From Candidatus Uhrbacteria bacterium GW2011_GWC2_41_11 (GTDB taxonomy: Bacteria > Patescibacteriota > Patescibacteriia > UBA9934 > GWF2-40-263), in NCBI GenBank assembly GCA_000996355.1, contig LCAH01000007.1, forward strand, positions 75,089-107,664: a stretch of 32,576 nucleotides of DNA, read 5' to 3'. Each line of letters starts with the position of its first letter. Positions within the stretch are counted from its first letter, which is position 1. Shown piece by piece: positions 19,908 through 32,576 of this stretch. The notes under the pieces were generated by a model. It was not told where the DNA came from and searched no databases. It worked only from the letters and a program-made list of their open reading frames with translations. A program made the position numbers and the translations under genes.

Positions 19908-20804
19908 ATGACCTTGTCCATTGTTCGTCATCGAAAAATTTGGTACACGTTCGGCGGGGCGCTTGTGGTCGCAAGTTTGATAAGCACCATTGTCTTTGGA
20001 TTGAATTTTGGTATTGATTTTACAGGCGGAAGTTTATTGGAGGTGAAATTTTCGAAACCACCGGCTGTGGAAGATTTGCGCCAGCGTCTTGTTCAAATTG
20101 GTTATGATCACACCACGGTGCAACCGTCTGGAGATACGGAGTTTTTGCTCCGTTTTCGAGATCTGAATGAAACGGAACACCAGCAGATTCTCCAAACTCT
20201 CCGAGATGGATATGGTGACACACAGGAATTGCGTTTTGATTCCATTGGTCCTTCGGTTGGAAAAGATCTGCGTCAAAAAACATCTCTTGGTGTTGTCATC
20301 ACTCTTGTTCTTATTGGGGTATATGTTGCCATTGCTTTTCGTAAAGTTTCCGATCCGGTTCCTTCTTGGAAATATAGTTTTTTAACGGTTTTGGTCGCGT
20401 TTCATGATGTGATTGTTCCGATCGGAGTTTTTGCCTGTCTTGGAAAATTTTTCGGGTGGCAAATTGATACGTCTTTTGTTGCTGCGGTGCTTACTATTTT
20501 GGGGTATTCTATTAACGATACGATTGTTGTATTTGACCGAACGCGTGAAAATTTGCTTCGTTCAGAAGAGAAACCGTTTGAACAAGTTGTGGAAGAGAGT
20601 ATTCATCAGACACTTACTCGTTCGTTTAATACAGGATTAGCATCTTTGCTTACTCTTTTGGCTATTTCCATCTGGGGAGGAGATACCACAAGACCGTTTG
20701 CGGTTGCATTGATTCTTGGAATTGTTGTTGGAACGTACTCATCCATTTTTCTTGCAAGTCCATTACTTGTGACATGGGAAAAATGGGGAAAGAGACATTC
20801 ATAA
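19908..20804 (+). CDS. secF: Protein translocase subunit SecF
   Basis: GIDFTGGSLLEVKF motif and six TM segments. The ATG is 1 nt after the secD stop. Confidence 0.9.
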   Translation: MTLSIVRHRKIWYTFGGALVVASLISTIVFGLNFGIDFTGGSLLEVKFSKPPAVEDLRQRLVQIGYDHTTVQPSGDTEFLLRFRDLNETEHQQILQTLRDGYGDTQELRFDSIGPSVGKDLRQKTSLGVVITLVLIGVYVAIAFRKVSDPVPSWKYSFLTVLVAFHDVIVPIGVFACLGKFFGWQIDTSFVAAVLTILGYSINDTIVVFDRTRENLLRSEEKPFEQVVEESIHQTLTRSFNTGLASLLTLLAISIWGGDTTRPFAVALILGIVVGTYSSIFLASPLLVTWEKWGKRHS

Positions 20805-20851
20805 AAAGAGCGAAAAAAGCAGCTGTTAATTCGGCTGTTTTTTGTTTGATA

Positions 20852-20860
20852 TGTTATAAT
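20852..20860 (+). promoter_or_regulatory. Extended -10 promoter (TGtTATAAT); the downstream gene may be leaderless
   Basis: TGnTATAAT ends 9 nt before the ATG at 20870. There is no SD. Confidence 0.35.
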
Positions 20861-20869
20861 AAGTCCGAT

Positions 20870-22444
20870 ATGTTTTCTGTGTTTGCATCCACATTTGAAC
20901 CTTCGATGTTGGAAACATTTTTGGCGCAGCCTATTGACGTGGTCATGTACCAAATTCTTTTATATTTTGGATGGATTCCGATTGTTTCCGTCCTTATTTG
21001 GGGATTTGGGGAAGTGTATTTAACCTCAAAACAAGATGTATTTTCCAAAAATATAAAATATGTCCTTCTCGCGATTGATGTTCCCCGGATGACAGAACAG
21101 AGTCCAAAAGGAATGGAAAACATGTTTGCAACTCTGCATGGAGCTTTTTCAAATTTGACCTGGAGGGATAAATGGATGATTGGAAAAATTCAACCGCGGT
21201 TCAGTTTTGAAATTGTATCGATTGACGGATACATTCAGTTTTATGTGCGTACAGATATAAAATTTCGTGATGTGATTGAAGCCGGTATTTATGCCCAATA
21301 TCCGGATGCACAAATTTCAGAAGTCGAGGATTATGCATCCATTGTCCCTTCTTCCTTTCCAAATGAGGAGTGGAATATGTGGGGTTCGGAATTAGCATTA
21401 AAGAAATCGGATTATCTTCCCATTCGAACATGGGATTTGTTTGAACATAGTTTAAGTCAGGAACTCAAAGATCCGCTTGCGGTTATATTGGAACAATTGG
21501 GATGTATGAAACCGGGAGAATGTTTTTGGTTTCAAATGATCGTATGTGTGAGTGATCAAGATTGGAAAGAAGATGGGGTTAAATTCATTAAAAAAATTTA
21601 CGGTCTGAAGGAAGAAACAAAAAAATCAGGTTTAGAAAAAGGTTTAGAAAGTGCTTTGTCTATTCCAAGCGACGTTTTGGAACAAACCATTGGAGTGAGT
21701 TTGCTTGGCATGGCGGGAATGGGGGGAGCTGCTGCCGTAAAACCAAAAGATGAAGACATGTGGAAAGCGTTTAAAATTACCTTGCAAGAAAAGGCTCAAG
21801 TAGAGGGAGTCGCAAATAAAATTGCAAAAATTGGTTTTAAAACAAAAATTCGCATGTTGTATTTTGGAAGAAAGAATATCTACAACAAAGGGGCACGTAC
21901 AGCCATGGTCAAGGGTATGTTGCAACAGTATACGCATCAGGACTTAAACGGGTTTAGCATGTATGGTCCACAAACACCAAAAGATGATTATTTTTGGCAG
22001 CGCTGGTCTTATACAGATCGTCAGTCACGTTTAACACGAGCTTATAAGGGTCGCAGTTTTAGTACAGGAGGACCTCCACATATTTTAAATACACAGGAAC
22101 TTGCTACCCTTTTTCATTTTCCAAGCGTTGTGATTAAGGCACCTCTTGTGAAAAAGACAGAGTCTCGCCGTGCCGAGCCTCCGGTTGGCCTTCCGATTGC
22201 ATTCGAAGATACCATGCCATCAAAACCAGTTCCTGCATCAACAGTTCCTCTTGTTGATACAAGGTCTTCTGTCATACCTTTGAAGAAGAAATCGGTTGTT
22301 TCTGTTTCTGAACCAGAATTGCAGGTTCATATTCCGGATCCGATTCGTGTTCTTCTTGAACCTGGAGTGGAGTTAGAGGATGTTCCTATGCCAATGTTGC
22401 CAAGTTCCGAGAAAGATGAACCGCCGTCAAATTTGCCTGTGTAA
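20870..22444 (+). CDS. Membrane-anchored hypothetical protein (524 aa), partner of the downstream ATPase
   Basis: One N-terminal TM helix (VVMYQILLYFGWIPIVSVLIWGF), a large soluble domain and a Pro-rich tail. The ORF-track start 20774 overlaps secF, so M at 20870 is preferred. Confidence 0.55.
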   Translation: MFSVFASTFEPSMLETFLAQPIDVVMYQILLYFGWIPIVSVLIWGFGEVYLTSKQDVFSKNIKYVLLAIDVPRMTEQSPKGMENMFATLHGAFSNLTWRDKWMIGKIQPRFSFEIVSIDGYIQFYVRTDIKFRDVIEAGIYAQYPDAQISEVEDYASIVPSSFPNEEWNMWGSELALKKSDYLPIRTWDLFEHSLSQELKDPLAVILEQLGCMKPGECFWFQMIVCVSDQDWKEDGVKFIKKIYGLKEETKKSGLEKGLESALSIPSDVLEQTIGVSLLGMAGMGGAAAVKPKDEDMWKAFKITLQEKAQVEGVANKIAKIGFKTKIRMLYFGRKNIYNKGARTAMVKGMLQQYTHQDLNGFSMYGPQTPKDDYFWQRWSYTDRQSRLTRAYKGRSFSTGGPPHILNTQELATLFHFPSVVIKAPLVKKTESRRAEPPVGLPIAFEDTMPSKPVPASTVPLVDTRSSVIPLKKKSVVSVSEPELQVHIPDPIRVLLEPGVELEDVPMPMLPSSEKDEPPSNLPV

Positions 22445-22459
22445 CTTTAGTGTTTTGCT

Positions 22460-24169
22460 ATGTCTGTTTACCCGGATCACGATCATGAAAACGATGTTAT
22501 TTATTTTGCACGGACGAATTACCGCAATCAAATGCGGAAATTTGGCATTAAGACAGACGACCGCCGCCGTCATGTTTATGTGATCGGAAAAACAGGTATG
22601 GGCAAAAGTGTCCTTCTTGAAAACATGATTTTGGCTGATATTTATGCAGGTCATGGATGTGCTTATGTTGATCCACACGGAGACACCGCAGAAAAATTGA
22701 TTAACTACATTCCTGAATCTCGATTAAAAGATGTGGTGTATTTTAACCCAGCGGATGTCGAACATCCCATGGGTTTTAATATTCTTGAATCATCGGATCC
22801 GAATACACGTCATGTGATTGCCTCTGGGCTCATGGGAGTGTTTAAAAAGATTTGGCCAGATGTATGGAGTGCACGCATGGAACATATCTTGAATAACTGT
22901 CTTTTAACCCTTTTGGAAAATGAAGGCAGTACATTGCTTGGAATCAATCGGATTCTTGTTGATCGAGATTTTCGTGTCAAGATGGTTGCAAATGTGAAAG
23001 ATCCAGTTGTAAAAGCTTTTTGGATTACGGAATTTGAACAATGGGAACCAAAGTTTCGCACAGAGGCTATTGCACCCATTCAGAACAAAGTTGGACAGTT
23101 TCTTTCTACCAGTGTTGTGCGCAATATTGTGGCACAAACAAAATCCACGATTCGTCCTAGGCAATTCATGGATGAAAGTAAAATTTTTATTGTCAACCTT
23201 TCCAAGGGACGTATCGGGGAAGATGCGATGCGTTTACTCGGAGGAATGCTTATTACTAAAATGCAGCTTTCCGCCATGGAACGTGTGGATACTCCGGAAA
23301 TAGAACGCGCAGACTTTTATTTGTATATTGACGAGTTTCAAAATTTTGCAACGGAAAGTTTCGCATCCATCCTTTCCGAAGCTCGTAAATATCGGTTGGC
23401 TCTTATCATGGCACATCAGTATATTGAACAGCTGACGGAAGAAGTGCGTGATGCGGTGTTTGGCAACGTTGGAACGATTTTAACATTTCGTGTTGGTTCG
23501 CCGGATGCCTTATTTTTGGAAAATGAATTCATGCCTCGGTTTACGCACGAAGATTTAGTGAACTTGGCAAAATACGAAATTTATCTTCGACTCATGATTG
23601 ATGGAGTGGCATCTGAACCATTTTCCGCAAACACACTTCCTCCCATCGCGGTTCGCACAGATTCAACACAAACCGTTGTTGAATATTCCCGCAAAGAATT
23701 TTCGAAGACACGAAAAGAGGTGGAAGAAGGAGTTTTGAAATGGAGTGATATGGAAGAGGGGAAAACAGCACCTGAAGAAATTGAAAAAATTTTTGATCAG
23801 GCAGATGCGAAGCGCAAAGCCATGAAGAAATTCGGCGGAAAACCTGTCTTTGAGTATACGTGCAGTCGGTGCGGAAAAGACATGGTTCTTCCGGTTGAAC
23901 TGGATCGTTCGCGTCCTATTTATTGTGAGGATTGTATTGAAATCGTTCGTGAAGAACGTAAACAACAAGGGGAAAAGAAAGAACCGGAAAAAAAGGAAAT
24001 CATTAAAGTGACTCCCTCTTCGCCGCCTCCACTTAGATCTATGAAACCGCAATTACGGGGTTCCATTGTCGTAAAACCATCCGAAAAAGAAATCGGACTC
24101 TCTGCATTACGTAAAGATGTTTCAAAACCAAACACATCTTCGTCACCTGTAGAACAGAAAAAAGTATGA
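22460..24169 (+). CDS. HerA/FtsK/TraD-superfamily (DUF87/AAA-like) P-loop ATPase with a C-terminal ClpX-type zinc ribbon
   Basis: Walker A VIGKTGMGKS, Walker B LYIDEFQNF, and RKYRLALIMAHQYIEQL typical of TraD/VirD4/HerA-like ATPases. The C-terminus is YTCSRCGKDMVLPVELDRSRPIYCEDCIEIV. Confidence 0.78.
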   Translation: MSVYPDHDHENDVIYFARTNYRNQMRKFGIKTDDRRRHVYVIGKTGMGKSVLLENMILADIYAGHGCAYVDPHGDTAEKLINYIPESRLKDVVYFNPADVEHPMGFNILESSDPNTRHVIASGLMGVFKKIWPDVWSARMEHILNNCLLTLLENEGSTLLGINRILVDRDFRVKMVANVKDPVVKAFWITEFEQWEPKFRTEAIAPIQNKVGQFLSTSVVRNIVAQTKSTIRPRQFMDESKIFIVNLSKGRIGEDAMRLLGGMLITKMQLSAMERVDTPEIERADFYLYIDEFQNFATESFASILSEARKYRLALIMAHQYIEQLTEEVRDAVFGNVGTILTFRVGSPDALFLENEFMPRFTHEDLVNLAKYEIYLRLMIDGVASEPFSANTLPPIAVRTDSTQTVVEYSRKEFSKTRKEVEEGVLKWSDMEEGKTAPEEIEKIFDQADAKRKAMKKFGGKPVFEYTCSRCGKDMVLPVELDRSRPIYCEDCIEIVREERKQQGEKKEPEKKEIIKVTPSSPPPLRSMKPQLRGSIVVKPSEKEIGLSALRKDVSKPNTSSSPVEQKKV

Positions 24170-26546: not shown

Positions 26547-28592
26547 ATGCCTTTTACGTTAAAATCTTCCTATCAACCAGCGGGTGACCAGCCAAAAGCA
26601 ATTATAGAACTGACAAAAGGATTGCATGCGGGAAAGAAATTTCAGACGCTTCTTGGTGTGACAGGTTCAGGTAAGACATTTACCATGGCCAATGTGATTC
26701 AAAATATCCAGCGACCTACGCTTGTGATTGCCCACAACAAAACATTGGCCGCACAGCTTTGCAATGAGTTCCGTGAATTTTTTCCACAAAATGCGGTTGA
26801 ATATTTTGTCAGTTATTACGATTATTATCAGCCGGAAGCCTATTTGCCTCGTACCGATACCTATATTGAAAAAGAAGCCATGATTAACGATGAGATTGAT
26901 CGTTTACGTCATGCGGCAACCCAAGCGCTTTTGTCTCGAGAGGATGTGATTATTGTTTCCTCTGTTTCTTGTATTTATGGTTTGGGATCTCCGGACGAAT
27001 ATGAACGTACGGTTTTGCATATTCATCTTGGAGAAAATGACATGGGGCGAGGAGAACTTTTGCGACGTTTAGTGGACATGCAGTTTGAACGGACAAATAC
27101 CGATTTGAAACGCGGTCATTTTCGGGTACATGGAAATGTCCTTGAAGTGATGCCGGTCAACCAGGAAGTCATTTATCGCGTTCTTTTTGATGGGGAATTT
27201 GTTTATCAAATCCAATTATTGGATCAGGTGACGCGCCGGGAAATGGAACAACCAACTGATATGTGGTTGTTTCCAGCAAAACATTACGTTGTGTCTTCCG
27301 AACGGAAGGATTCAGCTCTCCATCATATTCGTGAAGAATTAGAACTTCGGTTGGAAGCATTAGAACAAGAAGGAAAACTTTTGGAAGCGGAACGTCTGAA
27401 ACGTCGAACGCGTTACGATTTGGAAATGATTGAACAAGTTGGTTTTTGTAATGGGATTGAAAATTATTCCCGTTATTTTGATGGTCGCAAACCTGGAGAT
27501 CCTCCGTACACACTCGTGGATTATTTTCCAAAAGATTTTTTGCTCATGATTGATGAATCGCATGTGGCTGTTTCCCAGATTGGAGGCATGTATGAAGGGG
27601 ATCGGGCACGTAAACAAACATTGATTGATCACGGATTTCGTCTTCCGTCTGCAAAAGATAATCGTCCGTTGAAGTTTCAAGAATTTGAAGAGCGGATTGG
27701 ACTGTGTATTTTTACAAGTGCCACTCCGGGAAAATATGAACATGAAAAATGTTCGCAGGTAGTTGAACAAATTATTCGACCGACGGGTCTTGTTGATCCT
27801 CAAGTGACTGTGCGTCCTGTGACTCCAACAAATGGATCAAGAGGACAGGTTGATGATTTGATTCAAGAAATTCATGTACGTATTGAACGAGGTGAACGCA
27901 CACTTGTCACAACTCTTACCAAAAAAATGGCAGAGGATTTAAGTGAATTTTTGACAGACCAAAACGTGAAAGTACAGTATCTTCATTCCGATGTTGATAC
28001 ATTGGATCGCATTACGATTTTGAGTGATTTTCGAAAAGGAACATATGACGTTTTGGTTGGAGTGAATCTTCTTCGTGAAGGATTAGATCTCCCGGAAGTG
28101 ACTTTGGTTGCTATTTTGGATGCGGACAAGGAAGGATTTCTCCGTTCGGAAACATCACTGATTCAAACCATTGGTCGAGCAGCAAGAAATGTACGTGGAG
28201 AAGTGCTTTTGTATGCAGATGTGATGACGGGTTCTTTGAAACGAGCATTGGATGAAACAGAGCGTCGTCGAAATTTACAGATCGCTTATAATCTCGAACA
28301 TGGAGTGACTCCAAAGAGTATTGAAAAGAAAATAAACGATATTCGCGGCATGTTGGGAGGAGAAGAAAAAATAGAGGAGCAAATAAAAAATGTGCTTCAA
28401 GTGGAACTGACGGCTGAACCGCATGAAATGGAAGAAGTGATCAAAGAAAAAGAAATCGAAATGAAACAAGCCGCACAAAAATTAGATTTTGAAACCGCAG
28501 CCATTTTGCGTGATGAAATTGCCTTGTTGAAAAAGGAATTGAAGAAGAAAAAAGCCGACCCTCGTGAAATTGAGAGCCGGCCGAAAAATTGA
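26547..28592 (+). CDS. uvrB: Excinuclease ABC subunit B
   Basis: Walker A GVTGSGKTFT, helicase motifs and the beta-hairpin region. The C-terminal UvrC-interaction domain is DFETAAILRDEIALLKKEL. Confidence 0.95.
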   Translation: MPFTLKSSYQPAGDQPKAIIELTKGLHAGKKFQTLLGVTGSGKTFTMANVIQNIQRPTLVIAHNKTLAAQLCNEFREFFPQNAVEYFVSYYDYYQPEAYLPRTDTYIEKEAMINDEIDRLRHAATQALLSREDVIIVSSVSCIYGLGSPDEYERTVLHIHLGENDMGRGELLRRLVDMQFERTNTDLKRGHFRVHGNVLEVMPVNQEVIYRVLFDGEFVYQIQLLDQVTRREMEQPTDMWLFPAKHYVVSSERKDSALHHIREELELRLEALEQEGKLLEAERLKRRTRYDLEMIEQVGFCNGIENYSRYFDGRKPGDPPYTLVDYFPKDFLLMIDESHVAVSQIGGMYEGDRARKQTLIDHGFRLPSAKDNRPLKFQEFEERIGLCIFTSATPGKYEHEKCSQVVEQIIRPTGLVDPQVTVRPVTPTNGSRGQVDDLIQEIHVRIERGERTLVTTLTKKMAEDLSEFLTDQNVKVQYLHSDVDTLDRITILSDFRKGTYDVLVGVNLLREGLDLPEVTLVAILDADKEGFLRSETSLIQTIGRAARNVRGEVLLYADVMTGSLKRALDETERRRNLQIAYNLEHGVTPKSIEKKINDIRGMLGGEEKIEEQIKNVLQVELTAEPHEMEEVIKEKEIEMKQAAQKLDFETAAILRDEIALLKKELKKKKADPREIESRPKN

Positions 28593-28594
28593 GA

Positions 28595-28858
28595 TTAGAA
28601 ATCTCTTCCACAACCACTGCATTCCCGAGCAAAATTAGTGGTCATTGTTTTGCATTCCATGCAGTAATAAGACCCGAAGGAATCCGTACCGCCACGAACT
28701 GTCCTTGAACAGTGAGCACATGTTGCACCAACACCTCCACCGTTCTCGTTATATTCTCCACAATGAGAACACTGCCAAACACTGATTTTTTTTACAAAAT
28801 TAAAATCCTTATCTTGTGGAACTTGATGGACATTGTTCGGATCAAATTTCGTACTCAT
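28595..28858 (-). CDS. Cys-rich double zinc-ribbon protein (87 aa)
   Basis: Four CxxC pairs (CSHC, CAHC, CMEC, CSGC). Strong RBS AATGGAGGatactcATG. Upstream is a promoter-like TTGACA, 16-17 nt spacer, TATACT. Confidence 0.6.
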   Translation of the reverse strand: MSTKFDPNNVHQVPQDKDFNFVKKISVWQCSHCGEYNENGGGVGATCAHCSRTVRGGTDSFGSYYCMECKTMTTNFARECSGCGRDF

Positions 28859-28998
28859 GAGTATCCTCCATTGGCGTCTTGAATGTGCAATTTCCTCCTA
28901 CTTTCTACCAAGAAAGTATACATTTTTTCATTTCTTTGTCAATCCTCCGAGGCTTCTTAAGTCTGAGTATTGACATAAATTTCTTATTTTATGAAATC

Positions 28999-29041
28999 GG
29001 TGTAGCGTAGTGTAACCAGATATGCCATGTTAAGTGATGTT
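28999..29041 (+). repeat. Copy 1 of a recurring intergenic element (core AGATATGCCATGTTAAGTGATGTT at 29018-29041)
   Basis: Aligns over about 45 nt with copy 2. Contains GTTAAGT (GTTRRRY). Confidence 0.6.
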
Positions 29042-29077
29042 TTCAAAAAATAAAATAAAAATGTAATTTGGGCAATT

Positions 29078-29404
29078 TTAGTACGTATTACCAAAATCAT
29101 CAGGAAATTTTTTGCGTAACCAAACTTCTGCTCGACTGATATAGTCTTGTTTTATAGCCCTATTTCCATCAAATTCTCTAAATACATCTCCAAATAAAGC
29201 GAGTGGCGCTGATGGTGAAAGATCATTATTAATCTTCCAATGTTGATAAAGCAAAATACATGCTGCAAAATATGGACCCTTCTCTTTTAACCATTGATTG
29301 GTTATTTTAGTTTCTTCCAATTCTTCATCCTTGGGTTTACGATCATTTGGAAAACTTAATCGTTCTTGCCCTCTATCAATTTTTGGTGTTTCAATTTCAG
29401 CCAT
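29078..29404 (-). CDS. Hypothetical protein (108 aa)
   Basis: Protein-like composition. No recognisable motif. Confidence 0.45.
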   Translation of the reverse strand: MAEIETPKIDRGQERLSFPNDRKPKDEELEETKITNQWLKEKGPYFAACILLYQHWKINNDLSPSAPLALFGDVFREFDGNRAIKQDYISRAEVWLRKKFPDDFGNTY

Positions 29405-29518
29405 AAAATAAAGTTTAATTTATTAATTTAATTTAAAATTTGCGATAACGTTCGCGCGTGATGCACAGTTGTCGAGCCAAACTGTGATAGTATCGCGTAA
29501 GCGATCATAGTTTGAGTG

Positions 29519-29539
29519 AGGCAATTGGTCTTCAATTGC
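29519..29539. other. Perfect 8-bp hairpin GGCAATTG-gtctt-CAATTGCC inside a ~220-bp structured non-coding spacer
   Basis: Flanking imperfect pairing extends the stem to about 20 bp with bulges. Additional palindromes lie at 29446-29500 and 29581-29599. Confidence 0.5.
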
Positions 29540-29627
29540 CCACAAACTCATTCCATGCCCATCTTACCAAAAATGCAAAACCACCTTGGTTAGAGGTGGC
29601 TGTATACGCGCTGTTGTGCACTGTAAA

Positions 29628-29936
29628 TTAACCAGCTATCTTAAAAGTTGATGTGAAAGAGGATTTTATGAATGGTTTTTTTGCTATTTTTTGTGCAAGC
29701 TCCTGGACTTCAGGATCTGAAATCAAATCACTATTTTCTAAATCATACTTACGAAATAATTCCCACAAAGATTGATGTACCTTGAAATCATCCATTTCTT
29801 CACTACCTTGCTCTCCCCCATAATAAACCATTAAATCTCTCAGTTTAGAGATCAATTCCTTTTTAATAGCAGAACGATTTGCTTCTGTAACTGATTCAAT
29901 TCCCCCTTTCTCTTCTATTCGCGATTCTGGTTCCAT
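29628..29936 (-). CDS. Hypothetical acidic protein (102 aa)
   Basis: Protein-like composition. No recognisable motif. Confidence 0.45.
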   Translation of the reverse strand: MEPESRIEEKGGIESVTEANRSAIKKELISKLRDLMVYYGGEQGSEEMDDFKVHQSLWELFRKYDLENSDLISDPEVQELAQKIAKKPFIKSSFTSTFKIAG

Positions 29937-30018
29937 ATTTTTTAGTTAATAAAAATTTATATACTTTTTTATAGATGAAATTATTATAATACAACATCCG
30001 AAGTTGCGATAGTAATTT

Positions 30019-30062
30019 AGGTATAGCGAAGCGGAACCGGATATGTCGTGTTAAACGATGTT
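30019..30062 (+). repeat. Copy 2 of the recurring element (core GGATATGTCGTGTTAAACGATGTT at 30039-30062), abutting the stop codon of the downstream-oriented gene
   Basis: 22/24 identical to copy 3. Contains GTTAAAC. On the minus strand it begins 5 nt after the TGA of ORF 30062..30907. Confidence 0.6.
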
Positions 30063-30907
30063 CAGAAACCCGCCGACTTTAATCCTTTTATAGAAAAAGC
30101 TGTCGTTAATGCTTTACTACCAAAGCAACCTTGTTTACCTCCATAACGAAACAAAGCATCAGCAGGCCAAGAGCCACCTTGTTCTTGTAGTCTTAACAAT
30201 TTTTGTTTTTCAAAATCATTGTCAATACCGAGTGAATCAGCAAGGGCAGTTCTCATAGCTAAATCTAAAGGGTATTCTGTTTTTTTGATTCTTTGTTGTA
30301 GTTGTTCAGCAAGTTTGGTTTTCATTTTATCTGACAATTCAGGAAACTTTGTCAGTCTTCCCATAAAGTGTAGAAAAGAATCTGGTGATTGATAATAACG
30401 AGTGCCTGTCTGGTAAGCACCTGTATGCAAAGTTTCCATAAGCCACTGTTCTGTTTGTTGCATTTCTGAACCTCTGCCAAGTAAATGTGCAAGAATGGTG
30501 TCTAGTATGCGATTTGCGTCATCTTGAACTGATCGTCCAGATTCTAGCAAAACAGAATACCCCAATGCGTTAGTGTCAGTATCTGGTGGATATACTGTTC
30601 TGTCTTCAAAAAAAGTGAACTGCCCTTGCTGTCTTTGATTTTCAATATATTGCAAGGCAGCTCGCGCCGCTTCGCTATGAGGATGATCTTTTAGTGCAGT
30701 ATCAGCAATGGCTATTGTTGAGAAAGTTTCACGAGGCGATATTAGCGGGGGTGCTGAAAAGTCTCTTGAGGCACTTATATAAGAAGGGAAATGACCATTT
30801 TGATGCTCAGATTCCAAATATTGCCGTCCTTGTTCGACAGCTTTTTGTATACTCGGTTCTTTTTCGTTAAATCTTTCAGGATGCATACTTTTTAACAAAT
30901 TATACAA
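30062..30907 (-). CDS. Alpha/alpha-toroid protein with prenyltransferase/squalene-oxidase-like repeats (281 aa)
   Basis: QxxxGxW-type repeats (QEQGGSWPAD, ENQRQQGQF) and a DTDTNALGYSVLL aspartate-rich segment. This is a motif-level call only. Confidence 0.5.
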   Translation of the reverse strand: MYNLLKSMHPERFNEKEPSIQKAVEQGRQYLESEHQNGHFPSYISASRDFSAPPLISPRETFSTIAIADTALKDHPHSEAARAALQYIENQRQQGQFTFFEDRTVYPPDTDTNALGYSVLLESGRSVQDDANRILDTILAHLLGRGSEMQQTEQWLMETLHTGAYQTGTRYYQSPDSFLHFMGRLTKFPELSDKMKTKLAEQLQQRIKKTEYPLDLAMRTALADSLGIDNDFEKQKLLRLQEQGGSWPADALFRYGGKQGCFGSKALTTAFSIKGLKSAGF

Positions 30908-30926
30908 AGGCGGGCTCCTGAATTTC

Positions 30927-31020
30927 GTTTAACGTTTACGTGTAGAGGAAGTCGGCTGGCCGCACTGTGGTACGATCGCGTCGCCACAGGGCGGATAGCC
31001 AATTTGTGTTAAGTCGACAG
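30927..31020 (+). repeat. Degenerate copy of the element (TGTGTTAAGTCGAC at 31003-31020) with an upstream inverse core GTTTAAC and a GC-rich imperfect palindrome ccgcactgtgg..ccacagggcgg
   Basis: GTTTAAC at about 30927 and GTTAAGT at about 31008 bracket an imperfect stem-loop of about 88 bp. Confidence 0.4.
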
Positions 31021-31171
31021 GCTTAAATAGAGCTTCAAGTACATTAATATTAGCAGAAATGTTAGCAAAATTAAAGATTTCCTCTACGCGTTGTTAGCTG
31101 ATGTTTCCTTTTTATTTTGTCCCGCCGCAGCGGGACGTGTACAAAAGATTTTTCAGATTTCTTGGAAATTT

Positions 31172-31212
31172 TTTGAAAACGAAAACCGGAGAACCCATGT
31201 GAGTTCTCCGGC
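31172..31212 (-). terminator. Intrinsic terminator of the GC-rich gene
   Basis: 9-bp perfect stem ccggagaac/gttctccgg followed on the minus strand by TTTTCGTTTTC. Confidence 0.6.
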
Positions 31213-31240
31213 CACCCTGATGTAGGAAAAGAGTGCCAGC

Positions 31241-31750
31241 TTACGAACCGTACTTGGCACGCCAAGATTTGAGCGTGCTCGTGCGGTGCGCGGTGTTGTA
31301 AACCTCGGACATGGCCGCGTAGAGCATGGCCTGTGCCGAAATCACCTGCTGTTCGGTGAAGGGTTGAACCTTGTTTTTGTCCGCCAGGCAAGGCTCCCAG
31401 ACCCGGTCGCCGTTACCGGTGAAGAGAACCGAGTTGAAGCCACCACCAGCCGAGCAGATGAACACGCGGTCGAACTGGCCGTCGCCGTCGAGGTCGTGTC
31501 CGGTGATGGCCTGCGGATTGGGCAGATTCTTGTCCGAGAACAGGCCGCCCTGCGGCACGAGGTGGATCATCCGGAACTTGAACTCACCCTTGTACTGCGA
31601 CTCGTCGATATTGACGTTGTACGCCGCGTACACCCCGTTGTAGAGGTTCCACTCGAGGAGTGGTGAGTTCTTTTCCCGCGCGCAGCCGAAGCTGCTGCCG
31701 AGGAATGTGATACCGAGAACGGCGGCCAGAAACAGTGAGCTCTTTCTCAT
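31241..31750 (-). CDS. Secreted protein (169 aa) with FG-GAP/Ca-binding-like DxDGDG motif, encoded in a markedly GC-rich (about 60%) segment
   Basis: Signal peptide MRKSSLFLAAVLGITFLGSSFGC, DLDGDGQFD motif, RBS AGGAGAGatcacgATG. GC content is clearly higher than in the rest of the window. Confidence 0.6.
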   Translation of the reverse strand: MRKSSLFLAAVLGITFLGSSFGCAREKNSPLLEWNLYNGVYAAYNVNIDESQYKGEFKFRMIHLVPQGGLFSDKNLPNPQAITGHDLDGDGQFDRVFICSAGGGFNSVLFTGNGDRVWEPCLADKNKVQPFTEQQVISAQAMLYAAMSEVYNTAHRTSTLKSWRAKYGS

Positions 31751-32124
31751 CGTGATCTCTCCTGTGAAGGTGTGTTTCTTTGACCGCGGAATATTTCCAC
31801 AGTCAGCTTACCAGAAACAGCCCAGTAAACGTGCCAGTATAGGGTATTTGCTAGATTTTGTCAAGCCCTAATACCGCCACATTGGATCAGGAAGAACTAC
31901 GAGGTACAAAAAGATGTTAACGGAAACAGTTTGGCTGGGTGCAATTCACCTCTTTAATTCCCCTCTTGTGGCCCCTTCCAAGAAGGATAAAAATTTGTCA
32001 TCAAATAATTGATAAAAATCAAAAAAGAAAATAATTTACATCCGATAACAACGTGTATGCGGTTCCGCTTATTGTTCCTCGTCGCTTCATCTATATTTGC
32101 CTTCATTTCACTTCGGCAAACTTC

Positions 32125-32148
32125 GGATATGCCGTGTTAAACGACGTT
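32125..32148 (+). repeat. Copy 3 of the recurring element (GGATATGCCGTGTTAAACGACGTT)
   Basis: 22/24 identical to copy 2. An inverted gcggttccgc segment about 55 nt upstream matches agcggaaccg of copy 2. Confidence 0.6.
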
Positions 32149-32205
32149 TTGTTCAAAATATATTCCTTATTGTAAGAGCCCTTTTTAAATTTTTTGGTCG
32201 TGGTA

Positions 32206-32234
32206 TTGACAGGATTGCTATTTTCAACTATACA
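32206..32234 (+). promoter_or_regulatory. Sigma70-type promoter for the small membrane protein gene
   Basis: TTGACA, 17 nt spacer, TATACA. Confidence 0.45.
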
Positions 32235-32298
32235 ACTTTAAAGCTAAAATAGTGTATTTTTGCATCTTATACTAATAAAATATTGAAGGGAGGGCAGC

Positions 32299-32472
32299 AT
32301 GATTTTAAAAATTTTTAAGTCTTGTTTGTTAATGTTTTCGGTAATCGTTGGGGTTTGGATGTTGTGCACCGCTAAAAGTTCAGGCGAACCTTTTATACAA
32401 ATTGCAGGTATTTTAGTATCAGTGGTATTTCTCACTACATGCCTGTTTGCCTTTAAGCGTATCTGGACATGA
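32299..32472 (+). CDS. Small two-TM membrane protein (57 aa), not in the ORF track
   Basis: Strong RBS GGGAGGGcagcATG with a terminator downstream. Translation is MILKIFKSCLLMFSVIVGVWMLCTAKSSGEPFIQIAGILVSVVFLTTCLFAFKRIWT. The listed minus ORF 32244..32498 is its antisense. Confidence 0.5.
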   Translation: MILKIFKSCLLMFSVIVGVWMLCTAKSSGEPFIQIAGILVSVVFLTTCLFAFKRIWT

Positions 32473-32494
32473 AACATCTTCTCGGCTTGCTTAG

Positions 32495-32529
32495 TCACTC
32501 ACCTGGTTTTTTCGTGAGTGATTTTTTTT
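32495..32529 (+). terminator. Intrinsic terminator
   Basis: 8-bp stem tcactcac/gtgagtga followed by a T-run of 8. Confidence 0.6.
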
Positions 32530-32576
32530 CTTTTCCAAAAAAAATTTCAAAAAAGGGCTATTAAAAAATAAAATTT

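Follow-up and report, generated by a model that had tools for sequence, protein, structure and literature searches.

What kind of genetic element is formed by the unrelated small genes at the right end of this stretch of DNA? The window analysed here (32,576 nucleotides) comes from an ultra-small bacterium of groundwater, Candidatus Uhrbacteria bacterium GW2011_GWC2_41_11 (Patescibacteria/CPR), to whose UvrA the one encoded beside the array is 100% identical. In reverse complement, it matches a 38.6-kb groundwater contig, L001, exactly (window position 32576 corresponds to L001 position 9175; 0 mismatches over 11,336 nt). A preliminary description had suggested an integron-like, recombinase-driven array, possibly a CALIN. 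Our analysis agrees with this suggestion, and the support comes from a family of sites in other genomes. It is very likely that the window contains part of an orphan integron-like array of mobile cassettes that were assembled by a tyrosine recombinase. We found no published description of such arrays in the literature.

The array displays a recurring 24-nt motif, GGATATGYCRTGTTAARYGAYGTT, which matches the plus strand at 29018, 30039, and 32125 with at most one mismatch (0 matches expected, as estimated from 100 shuffles). As noted previously, copies 2 and 3 are identical at 22 of 24 positions, and copies 1 and 2 are alike over about 45 nt. A degenerate copy had been placed at about 31003, but this point falls inside the variable loop of a site at 30922-31104, and the fourth in-register copy, TACGCGTTGTTAGCTGATGTTTCC, is found at 31085-31108. 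The in-register copies are spaced by 1021, 1043, and 1043 nt, but the units themselves measure 0.5-1.1 kb and are not uniformly 1 kb long. In reverse complement, the motif reads as the 5′ arm (R″-L″) of each site. Hence, the plus-strand GTTAAR formerly read as a GTTRRRY core is the R″ complement rather than R′. Each site is on the minus strand and immediately follows the 3′ end of an ORF of that strand, and the minus-strand motif begins directly after a stop codon (TGA|ACATCGTTTAAC, 30064-30050). A covariance model of the site family, run across the whole window with filters off, yielded five matches, all inside 28986-32147, while the strongest match in the rest of the window reached 11.6 bits (E 1.5). 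This model detected no sites elsewhere in the 29 kb of housekeeping DNA, meaning that they are confined to the array, and no Rfam family matched them.

The site family was delineated in other genomes. A scan of species-representative genomes with a 17-base pattern gave more than 118 stretches, by far the most from Patescibacteria MAGs and many arranged in arrays; contigs of Woesearchaeota and Altarchaeum were matched as well. Cassettes follow the layout TTAnnnGAAAT, usually one ORF, and an attC-like site. In gene sense, the 5′ arm of the site comprises an R″ box (ACATCnnnTAAC), one unpaired A, and an L″ box (nnGnATATnnGG), and the 3′ arm comprises an L′ box and an R′ box (G|TTAnnnGAAAT) separated by four unpaired nucleotides (AAAC). 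The loop between the arms varies, at roughly 10-180 nt. In total, 148 paired sites were counted in 82 loci (median length 130 nt). In the family, 10 of the 12 pairs of the L stem displayed compensatory changes, and 85% of its cells were paired. Over the whole structure, the observed covariation was reached by 0 of 500 shuffles, and 82.7% was paired compared to 19-39% in controls in which the partner was slid by 1-3 columns.

These sites also revealed the boundaries of the cassettes. The variable R″ triplet was complementary to the R′ of the preceding site, which starts the same cassette, at a mean of 2.29 out of 3 positions (perfectly so in 41 of 75 cases), whereas the agreement with the R′ of its own site was at the random level (1.27 out of 3, against 1.14 ± 0.10). 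Since the R″ triplet pairs with the R′ of the preceding site and not with that of its own, we infer that crossover takes place at G|TT. Furthermore, cassettes common to different organisms (79-87% identity) are bounded from R′ to R′, with the downstream attC included.

Positions 28986-32576 of the window (3.6 kb) are the distal part of an array of 10.5 kb, inserted between the DNA-repair genes uvrB and uvrA, that holds about 14 sites (model matches) and 16 ORFs; the rest lies beyond the right edge. The left flank, which is the distal border of the insertion, consists of uvrB (26547-28592, plus strand) and an 87-aa zinc-ribbon gene (28595-28858, minus strand), for which a promoter of its own had been proposed and a promoter-like site indeed occurs at 28942-28915. 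Next comes a terminal truncated attC-like site (28986..29040, minus strand; 14.2 bits, E 0.34) that includes copy 1 of the motif. As read from the sequence, only its 5′ half is present, namely R″ (ACATCACTTAAC) and L″ (ATGGCATATCTGG), and L′ and R′ are missing. The adjoining cassette, delimited by the crossover at 29448 and by the truncated site, carries a 108-aa ORF (29078..29404, minus strand) that was predicted as a gene on every contig. The bulged hairpins formerly assigned to a spacer at 29446-29600 are a fifth site of the family, a complete one of 187 nt (29438..29624, minus strand; 18.3 bits, E 0.035) with a divergent R″ (ACAGTGCACAAC), the R′ ACG|TTATCGCAAAT, and a putative crossover at 29449|29448. 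Its predicted single-stranded fold (-33.2 kcal/mol, z = -3.7) has a stem closed by L″/L′.

A 102-aa ORF (29628..29936, minus strand; ORF list and gene call) precedes a degenerate site of 79 nt (29983..30061, minus strand; 25.6 bits, E 5.5e-4), which corresponds to copy 2. Here, R″ and L″ are intact, L′ is partly deleted, R′ reads GTTGTAT, 10 model positions are deleted in the 3′ arm, and the fold is no better than that of shuffles (z = +0.5); the crossover would fall at 29995|29994. The next cassette ORF (281 aa, 30062..30907, minus strand; ORF list and gene call) contains an 86-nt insertion in a strain with 98% identical DNA over the region. None of the 108-, 102-, and 281-aa ORFs had a significant Pfam match or any match in NCBIfam or PADLOC. 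The complete 183-nt site at 30922..31104 (minus strand; 46.8 bits, E 3.5e-9) displays R″ ACATCAGCTAAC and L″ ACGCGTAGAGGA in arm 1, followed by a GC-rich structured loop, and L′ TCCTCTACACGT, the spacer AAAC, and R′ G|TTAAACGAAAT in arm 2. Its crossover was placed at 30933|30932, and its single strand is predicted to fold at -26.3 kcal/mol (z = -3.1).

The presence of a GC-rich unit was confirmed (58% GC at 31201-31800, against 34-41% around it). This cassette encodes a 169-aa protein with a lipoprotein-like signal peptide (31241..31750, minus strand, 58% GC), an ORFan for which 5.8 billion proteins yielded a single related cluster, at 98% identity. Also on the minus strand of this cassette are a terminator-like hairpin followed by a T-run (31184..31213), 3′ of the ORF, and a near-consensus sigma-70-like promoter (31836..31864, TTGACA-17-TATACT), a consensus match only, at 11 of 12 positions. 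Beyond it lies a 110-nt attC-like site (32038..32147, minus strand; copy 3) that is nearly symmetric, with R″-like outer boxes on both sides (minus strand, ACGTCGTTTAAC; plus strand, ACATCCGATAAC). The score was 37.6 bits (E 6.4e-7) when the site was read on the plus strand, but no more than 9.2 bits in the minus-strand reading. Its AAAC bulge is absent, its fold is weak (z = -1.1), and its crossover was taken as 32049|32048. Two of the five sites of the window are degenerate, folding no better than shuffles. The last cassette spans 32049 to the window end and holds a hydrophobic 57-aa ORF (32299..32472, ORF list) on the plus strand, against the direction of the array, the other cassette ORFs of the window being on the minus strand. 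The full array has two paralogues of this reverse-oriented cassette, at L001 4014-4163 and 7029-7202. The final four bases (32573..32576, minus strand) are already within the R′ box of the attC that follows (L001 9090-9178, 76.6 bits).

An integrase and an attI had been expected past the right edge of the window. Instead, the array continues for 6.5 kb and ends at a truncated attC-like site 185 nt from uvrA. Neither a recombinase nor an attI-like site was found within 10 kb on each side. As both terminal sites are truncated and no recombinase lies within this distance, the array is of the orphan, CALIN type. In relatives with 80-82% identical UvrA, the gap between uvrB and uvrA measures 0-453 nt and holds no attC-like sites. 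A comparison of strains for presence/absence variation had also been suggested. All 13 contigs with identical UvrB were collinear with the window locus, as was the strain with 98% identical DNA, and no cassette turnover was seen among them. A missing recombinase and collinear strains had both been put forward as grounds against an integron-like reading, yet this reading stands. The two degenerate sites, the promoter-like sites of some cassettes, and the many attI-like sites of relatives with no recombinase beside them also speak against it. The uvrB-uvrA array is probably a fossil, or served only in trans.

The machinery was found in relatives, whose arrays begin at a conserved attI-like site. 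An IntI-like ORF was present in 16 of 118 genome tiles, transcribed divergently from the array in 14 of them. The recombinase is a divergent Xer/IntI-like tyrosine recombinase of 270 aa with RKHRHY-type catalytic motifs, and it scores about equally against archaeal XerA and against IntI. It has no I2, the IntI-specific domain thought to be essential for integron cassette capture: none of the IntI1-like ORFs that tblastn detected in the tiles (16 loci) had this insertion, and the recombinase on the Altarchaeum contig L061 is equally devoid of it. Recombinase genes sampled from long contigs were accompanied by arrays and a conserved upstream attI-like site in four out of four cases. In metagenomes, 45 of 98 attI-like sites had a recombinase gene (median distance 87 nt) and about half had none adjacent, while attC half-motifs followed 58 of 62. 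At the attI-like site, the four bases that follow GTT agreed with the R″ of the first cassette itself at all four positions in five loci and at three in two loci. We propose that cassettes would be excised as circles and inserted singly by a tyrosine recombinase recognizing a folded hairpin (R″/R′ and L″/L′ stems), with strand exchange at G|TT. The enzyme in related genomes is likely the 270-aa recombinase, often divergent beside the attI-like site. Under this proposal, this protein would catalyze the reaction, the sites would fold as single strands, and the uvrB-uvrA array would at present be inactive.

Other explanations were weighed against this one. The array might be the remnant of a classical integron (CALIN), its canonical I2-bearing IntI being elsewhere or lost and the Xer-like recombinase an incidental neighbour. 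CALINs are common and thought to be degraded integrons, and the window array has no integrase, but the lack of I2 at all 16 tile loci, the positional and oriented linkage of recombinase and attI-like site, and the agreement of the G|TT junction with the first cassette make this very improbable. Moreover, family sites have their unpaired bases on the arm opposite to that of canonical attCs, and their model did not score class 1 attCs. Exploitation of a housekeeping Xer, as by IMEX such as CTX phage, would make the 270-aa enzyme the chromosome-dimer resolvase of the cell and the attI-like site its dif, at which cassettes would accumulate. The enzyme is as near archaeal XerA as IntI, the attP of CTX phage is a precedent for Xer enzymes recombining and integrating a folded single-stranded hairpin, and xerS adjoins its dif site in streptococci. 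Nevertheless, one genome has at least two attI-like sites (L140, L206), many follow unrelated housekeeping genes, no GC-skew switch was seen at the recombinase/attI-like locus in three of four long contigs, and the sites are long hairpins with covarying stems rather than 28-bp dif-type cores. We therefore consider this scenario improbable.

Non-mobile intergenic repeats (REP- or MITE-like elements, terminators, or regulatory RNA structures) that stand by chance between small genes would explain why the sites are palindromic and 3′ of genes, why ordinary promoter-like and terminator-like sites occur in some cassettes, and why the array is invariant among close strains. This is scarcely credible and was rejected, as it is contradicted by the circular-permutation pattern of R″/R′ complementarity, by cassettes that different organisms share and that have their boundaries at the sites, by the linkage to recombinase and attI-like site, and by the confinement of sites without Rfam match to arrays.

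Known systems were compared with the family. Like the enzymes of Xer/dif systems and IMEX (XerA, XerS/difSL, CTX phage), the family recombinase is Xer-sized, but the family sites are 50-250-nt hairpins in arrays, with several insertion sites per genome. The pdif modules of Acinetobacter plasmids are gene modules bounded by Xer-type recombinase sites, 28-bp XerC-6-XerD cores that flank the modules in alternating orientation. In contrast, sequence inspection reveals one long hairpin site at the 3′ end of each unit, in a single orientation. Sedentary chromosomal integrons and CALINs, compared through the IntegronFinder definitions (Cury et al. 2016; Neron et al. 2022), share a number of features with the family. 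As in the V. cholerae superintegron (VCR), cassettes are mostly single-ORF, in the same orientation, mostly of unassigned function, and of mixed GC, and they close with an imperfectly palindromic site that has AAC...GTT boxes on the outside, a covarying stem on the inside, and a variable loop. Because crossover falls at G|TT, array sites are chimeric; moreover, sites are homogeneous within a lineage, the attI-like site of relatives adjoins a divergently transcribed tyrosine recombinase gene, and orphan arrays without integrase exist, as among CALINs. The family differs in its Patescibacteria hosts, in its conserved outer boxes of 12 nt (ACATC.../...GAAAT), in the possibility of several attI-like sites per genome without recombinase, and in a 3-nt unpaired excess beside R′, on the gene-sense 3′ arm, where canonical sites have two extrahelical bases on the R″-L″ arm.

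Archaeal integrons have been described in MAGs of uncultivated lineages, including ultra-small DPANN, mostly as CALINs (6 IntIs against 539 attCs in 75 genomes), and their IntIs were reported to have the IntI-specific additional domain (Ghaly et al. 2022, PMC9668308). The recombinases of our family, that of Altarchaeum L061 included, are unlike these in having no such domain, and for this reason the family is not established as one of canonical integrons. The repeats of relatives adjoin a recombinase without the very domain to which cassette capture has been ascribed. As for the cassettes themselves, the promoter-like and terminator-like sites of some distinguish them from the promoterless textbook cassette.

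The preliminary description had interpreted the repeats at the right-hand end of this stretch as an integron-like or otherwise recombinase-driven cassette array, and this core reading is borne out by our analysis. The recurrent motif on which it was based is real. The 24-nt element GGATATGYCRTGTTAARYGAYGTT occurs at positions 29018, 30039 and 32125 and in no other place in the 32.6 kb, with 0 matches expected from 100 shuffles. A repeat finder located a fourth in-register copy at 31085-31108 (copy spacings of 1021, 1043 and 1043 nt), as well as inverse partners of the repeat at 29604-29630, 30909-30933 and 32038-32070. The degenerate copy previously assigned to 31003 was misplaced, since this position lies inside the loop of a site spanning 30922-31104. 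All cassette ORFs of the window are encoded on the minus strand; the motif corresponds to the 5' arm of each site read in reverse complement, beginning directly past a minus-strand stop codon.

The sites themselves are attC-like imperfect inverted repeats in which the L''/L' pairing is conserved at the level of structure and not of sequence. Read on the gene-sense strand, they consist of an R'' box ACATCnnnTAAC followed by one unpaired A, an L'' box nnGnATATnnGG, a loop that varies between roughly 10 and 180 nt and in many cases includes CnCCCAAATTT, an L' box, the spacer AAAC, and an R' box GTTAnnnGAAAT. A covariance model trained on 26 such sites from 21 loci yielded exactly five matches above noise when the window was scanned with filters off, at 30922-31104 (46.8 bits), 32038-32147 (37.6 bits), 29983-30061 (25.6 bits), 29438-29624 (18.3 bits) and 28986-29040 (14.2 bits). 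The top score elsewhere in the window was 11.6 bits (E 1.5). The bulged hairpins noted earlier at 29446-29600 make up a fifth site of this attC-like family. Single-stranded DNA folds of the two long complete sites were far more stable than those of shuffles (z = -3.1 and -3.7), with a stem closed by L''/L'. Part of L' is missing from the site at 29983-30061 (z = +0.5), and the one at 32038-32147 folds only weakly (z = -1.1). The latter is nearly symmetric, with both outer boxes R''-like and the AAAC bulge absent, and it scored 37.6 bits on the plus strand versus 9.2 bits on the strand of the array; this symmetry could be the product of an inversion or of hairpin repair. An Rfam scan of the array region returned no family match, only sub-threshold chance matches; Rfam contains no attC family.

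Sites of this kind are widespread. Searching 185,579 species-representative genomes with a 17-base pattern derived from the 5' arm gave more than 118 matching stretches. The great majority belong to Patescibacteria MAGs (Uhr-, Magasanik-, Moran- and Saccharibacteria, Parcubacteria, and others), and a few contigs are labelled as Gammaproteobacteria, Woesearchaeota or Altarchaeum. Many of these stretches harbour arrays. Viral contigs displayed seven isolated matches with neither arrays nor recombinase, which we regard as chance level. Across 117 distinct sites, the outer AAC and GTT triplets of R'' and R' were invariant or more than 96% conserved, and the 12-bp L stem was 85% paired, with changes on both sides in 10 of its 12 pairs. 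The structure as a whole was 82.7% paired, versus 19-39% in slid controls, and its observed covariation was reached by none of 500 shuffles.

Different genomes have in common not only these hairpin sites with covarying stems but also cassettes bounded at G|TT. We compared 75 consecutive triples, each made up of the R' of one site and the R'' and R' of the site that follows. On average, the variable triplet of R'' was complementary at 2.29 of 3 positions to the preceding R', the box that opens the same cassette, and in 41 of the 75 the complementarity was perfect; against the R' of its own site the value was 1.27 of 3, equal to random pairing (1.14 +/- 0.10). Pairing of R'' with the preceding R' is the chimeric-site signature expected from cassettes that circularise and insert by strand exchange at G|TT. 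Cassettes that different organisms have in common display the same boundary. The dehydrogenase cassette of the window organism's array has a 79% identical copy in an unrelated array (L087), and several other cassette pairs, 80-87% identical, are common to different organisms. The homology blocks of common cassettes open at an R' box, and in the clearest pairs (L009 with L063, and L038 with L053) homology takes in the downstream site and stops at the R' box after it. These data place the crossover at the G|TT of R', with TTRRRY + ORF + attC as the unit and chimeric sites in the arrays.

In reverse complement, the window agrees exactly with a 38.6-kb contig (L001) from a groundwater metagenome, with 0 mismatches over 11,336 nt. 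The array occupies 10.5 kb between uvrB and uvrA in L001, with roughly 16 small ORFs and some 14 sites; the window ends within the R' box of the next site (window 32573-32576, L001 9165-9178). Several public contigs of this organism also stop within array repeats, so the array evidently breaks short-read assemblies. The UvrA encoded there shares 100% identity with the protein of Candidatus Uhrbacteria bacterium GW2011_GWC2_41_11. In three relatives with UvrA proteins 80-82% identical, uvrB is directly followed by uvrA with a gap of 0-453 nt and none of these sites, which makes the array a lineage-specific insertion that split a uvrB-uvrA pair.

An integrase had been anticipated beyond the right edge of the window in case the array was an integron. 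No recombinase gene was found between uvrA and uvrB or within 10 kb beyond uvrA, where NAD-salvage genes reside, and no Phage_integrase-type ORF occurred among the ten largest window ORFs tested; the window array hence lacks the recombinase gene that a complete integron sensu IntegronFinder has within about 4 kb of its attC cluster. It also opens without an attI, starting with the 3' half of an attC at 185 nt from uvrA. The first site of the array has no 5' half and the last one (28986-29040) no 3' half. We considered that these were the two halves of one attC, left by insertion of a multi-cassette circle, and rejected this because their loops do not match. Presence/absence variation among strains was likewise not observed: all 13 contigs with identical UvrB were collinear, as was a strain from another site that is 98% identical in DNA over the region. 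With about 14 clustered sites in 10.5 kb and no integrase nearby, the array is a CALIN (at least two clustered attC sites without an integrase), provided that the sites are attC. Taken by itself, then, the window offers the more modest finding of an orphan cassette array that splits a uvrB-uvrA operon and is probably fossil; we infer that it is inactive or served only in trans. The cassette arrays in the window (28500-32576) and at loci L140, L142 and L143 are oriented opposite to their flanking genes and to the local GC skew. With this orientation, what is presumed to be the lagging-strand template would carry the antisense (bottom) strand of the sites.

Related arrays elsewhere are linked to an attI-like site and to the gene of a tyrosine recombinase without the IntI-specific I2 domain. 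A tblastn search with IntI1 (a query 100% identical to plasmid IntI1) retrieved full-length homologues in 16 of the 118 genome stretches, and in 14 of the 16 the gene was divergent from the array, the layout of a classical integron. In all four members sampled on long contigs, the array lay upstream of the recombinase gene. Family members are 70-76% identical across different CPR candidate phyla (P0121-P0240), a level unusually high for such divergent lineages that points to horizontal transmission of the platform or else to very strong constraint. Between the recombinase gene and the array lies a conserved attI-like site, ...TATACGAAAACACTTCGCATATAAACGAG|TTAnnnGAAAT, and, in the comparison from the recombinase side, ...CAATATTGTGTAnnnTATACGAAAACACTTCGCATATAAACGAG|TTAnnnGAAAT. 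The four bases after GTT at this junction were compared, under a strict R'' pattern, with the complement of the R'' that belongs to the first cassette itself: 4 of 4 positions agreed in five loci, and 3 of 4 in two.

Scanning metagenomes for the attI-like core recovered at least 120 contigs, and attC half-motifs were located downstream of the site in 58 of the 62 contigs with enough flank. Our expectation of a recombinase beside every attI-like site proved wrong. The gene was present, divergent and at a median distance of 87 nt, at 45 of 98 sites; the remaining 53 come after housekeeping genes of unrelated kinds, gyrB and relA/spoT among them. At least one genome has two such sites (L206 and L140), and the first cassette sequence is the same after both. 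Orphans, both platforms and arrays like that of the window, thus seem to be a normal part of the system. A variant recombinase, I2-less and with a 70- to 100-aa N-terminal extension, was observed in a Nitrospinae MAG (L080, 3415-4622) and an Altarchaeum MAG (L061, 699-1757), where it is co-directional with the attC sites instead of divergent.

The recombinases next to related arrays are about 270 aa long and carry conserved catalytic motifs, namely GLRVSE, KGxKDR, HxLRHSFATHLL, LLGH and IYT. The IntI-specific additional domain (I2 helix) is absent from them: a MAFFT alignment displayed a gap opposite the extra segment of IntI1, about 40 residues long, and the phmmer alignment to the VchIntIA structure splits at this place, with 12 residues in place of the 54 of IntI4. 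The integron integrase model TIGR02249 reached only 207-222 bits (two stretches; cutoff 265), while the best NCBIfam match was the XerA-type family NF040815 (216-226 bits, cutoff 220). Among solved structures, archaeal XerA (E 2e-40 and 6e-39) and IntI4 (E 7e-39) were equally close, and XerD was much further away (E 2e-24). By the alignments and the TIGR02249 score, this enzyme is not an integrase with the intI_Cterm/I2 domain of integrons.

The geometry of the sites differs as well. Canonical attC sites have two extrahelical bases on the R''-L'' arm of the folded bottom strand and an unpaired, roughly symmetric central spacer (PMC7439510). As a reference we took seven clean class 1 attCs from plasmids, of very unequal lengths and used for the comparison of arm asymmetry only. 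Their boxes are of the RYYYAAC and GTTRRRY types, and the spacers of both arms measure 5 to 6 nt. One extra base or more was present on the R''-L'' arm in 7/7, and the 5' arm had as many extra bases as the 3' arm or more in 5/7, counts that fit the two published extrahelical bases (PMC7439510). The site family departs from this canonical geometry, as in 126 of 139 sites the 5' arm has 0-1 extra base whereas the 3' arm has 3-6. These extra bases are directly beside R', the crossover box, which places the asymmetry on the crossover arm and not on the opposite one. The family covariance model gave no score at E <= 1 against the class 1 attCs in L144 and L145.

We postulate that the I2-less recombinase would excise cassettes as circles, which would then be inserted at attI-like sites through recognition of the folded site, with polarity possibly provided by the 3-nt bulge rather than by extrahelical bases read by I2. 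Other explanations were weighed against this model. An ordinary intergenic repeat family would have to account for the complementarity of R'' with the preceding R', for common cassettes bounded by the sites and for the linkage to a recombinase and an attI-like site, and we give it hardly any credence. That a classical IntI acts on these arrays from elsewhere is quite improbable, considering both the I2-less enzymes found beside related arrays and the placement of the extra bases. Somewhat less remote, though still unlikely, is that the cassettes exploit the housekeeping Xer/dif system, with which the XerA-like character of the recombinase would agree. A dif site occurs once per replicon, at the replication terminus, and its 28-bp core consists of a 6-8-bp spacer between two 11-bp arms, whereas the sites described here are long hairpins, the attI-like sites are several per genome and follow unrelated genes, and three of four contigs displayed no GC-skew switch at the locus.

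The element behaves as an integron cassette array does and, by operational definition, counts as a CALIN; it falls outside the integrons as currently defined on account of its integrase domain and extrahelical-base geometry. Near attC sites in complete genomes, Cury et al. 2016 encountered I2-less recombinases only sporadically, and they concluded that these were not IntI. Escudero et al. present the acquisition of I2 as the key innovation that turned a Xer-like recombinase into one acting on folded attC (PMC7790495), and detection software follows this view of integron biology in defining integrases by the I2 domain. Archaeal IntIs have been reported with the IntI-specific domain (PMC9668308). 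The literature that we searched, which covers few subscription journals, contained no description of integrons in Patescibacteria; an earlier description may exist. We see about an even chance that these elements represent an undescribed integron class of Patescibacteria and possibly DPANN, with a Xer-like I2-less integrase, opposite-arm asymmetry (a 3-nt bulge beside the crossover) and several attI-like platforms per genome.

The wider value of the window array is as an entry to this CPR-wide integron-like system with an I2-less integrase. It appears that a whole superphylum runs cassette arrays, complete with attI-like sites, attC-like sites and a G|TT crossover, with such an enzyme. If true, structure-specific cassette capture does not need the I2 innovation, and it either predates I2, in a living intermediate between Xer and IntI, or evolved twice. 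Confirmation would provide a testable natural counter-example to the I2 requirement or an evolutionary intermediate, and a second structure-specific recombination system for engineering. It would also reveal by what route CPR bacteria, with their reduced genomes and dependence on hosts, take up and keep accessory genes, and mean that integron surveys of MAGs miss or mislabel such elements.

Most cassette ORFs have no family assignment. The exceptions in the full array are a NUDIX protein, a short-chain dehydrogenase (adh_short) and a histidine-kinase-like ATPase (HATPase_c), all outside the window. No cassette ORF of the window exceeded the Pfam gathering cut-off, NCBIfam returned sub-cutoff matches only for window ORFs, and PADLOC yielded no matches for cassette proteins. 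The called 81-aa gene at L001 8959-9204 overlaps an attC, and its tblastn matches in other loci are other attC sites, indicating a spurious ORF made by the repeat. At 31184-31864 lies a 58%-GC cassette with a near-consensus promoter-like site and a strong terminator-like hairpin, which is a self-contained expression unit within a cassette. Its 169-aa, lipoprotein-like product is an ORFan, so no donor lineage can be named.

Three paralogous cassettes in reverse orientation encode hydrophobic proteins of 49 to 57 aa (window 32299-32472, plus strand; L001 4014-4163 and 7029-7202, minus strand). Each has a hairpin terminator and, upstream, a TTGACA-type promoter-like sequence recognized by eye, not from a promoter scan. 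Two of these cassettes start out identical exactly past GTTATCTGAAAT, in line with a crossover at G|TT. Reverse-oriented, self-expressed cassettes of sedentary integrons are typically toxin-antitoxin modules; by analogy, these proteins are candidate small toxins. The interval 28595-28942, which separates the uvrB stop codon from the truncated last attC, holds the gene of an 87-aa double zinc-ribbon protein together with its consensus-like promoter; this gene may be a last cassette or a resident one. The region 20774-24169, immediately preceding bacA, mnmA and uvrB, encodes a DUF8128 protein and a VirD4/TrwB-type coupling protein, and resembles a portion of a type IV secretion or DNA-uptake-like machinery.
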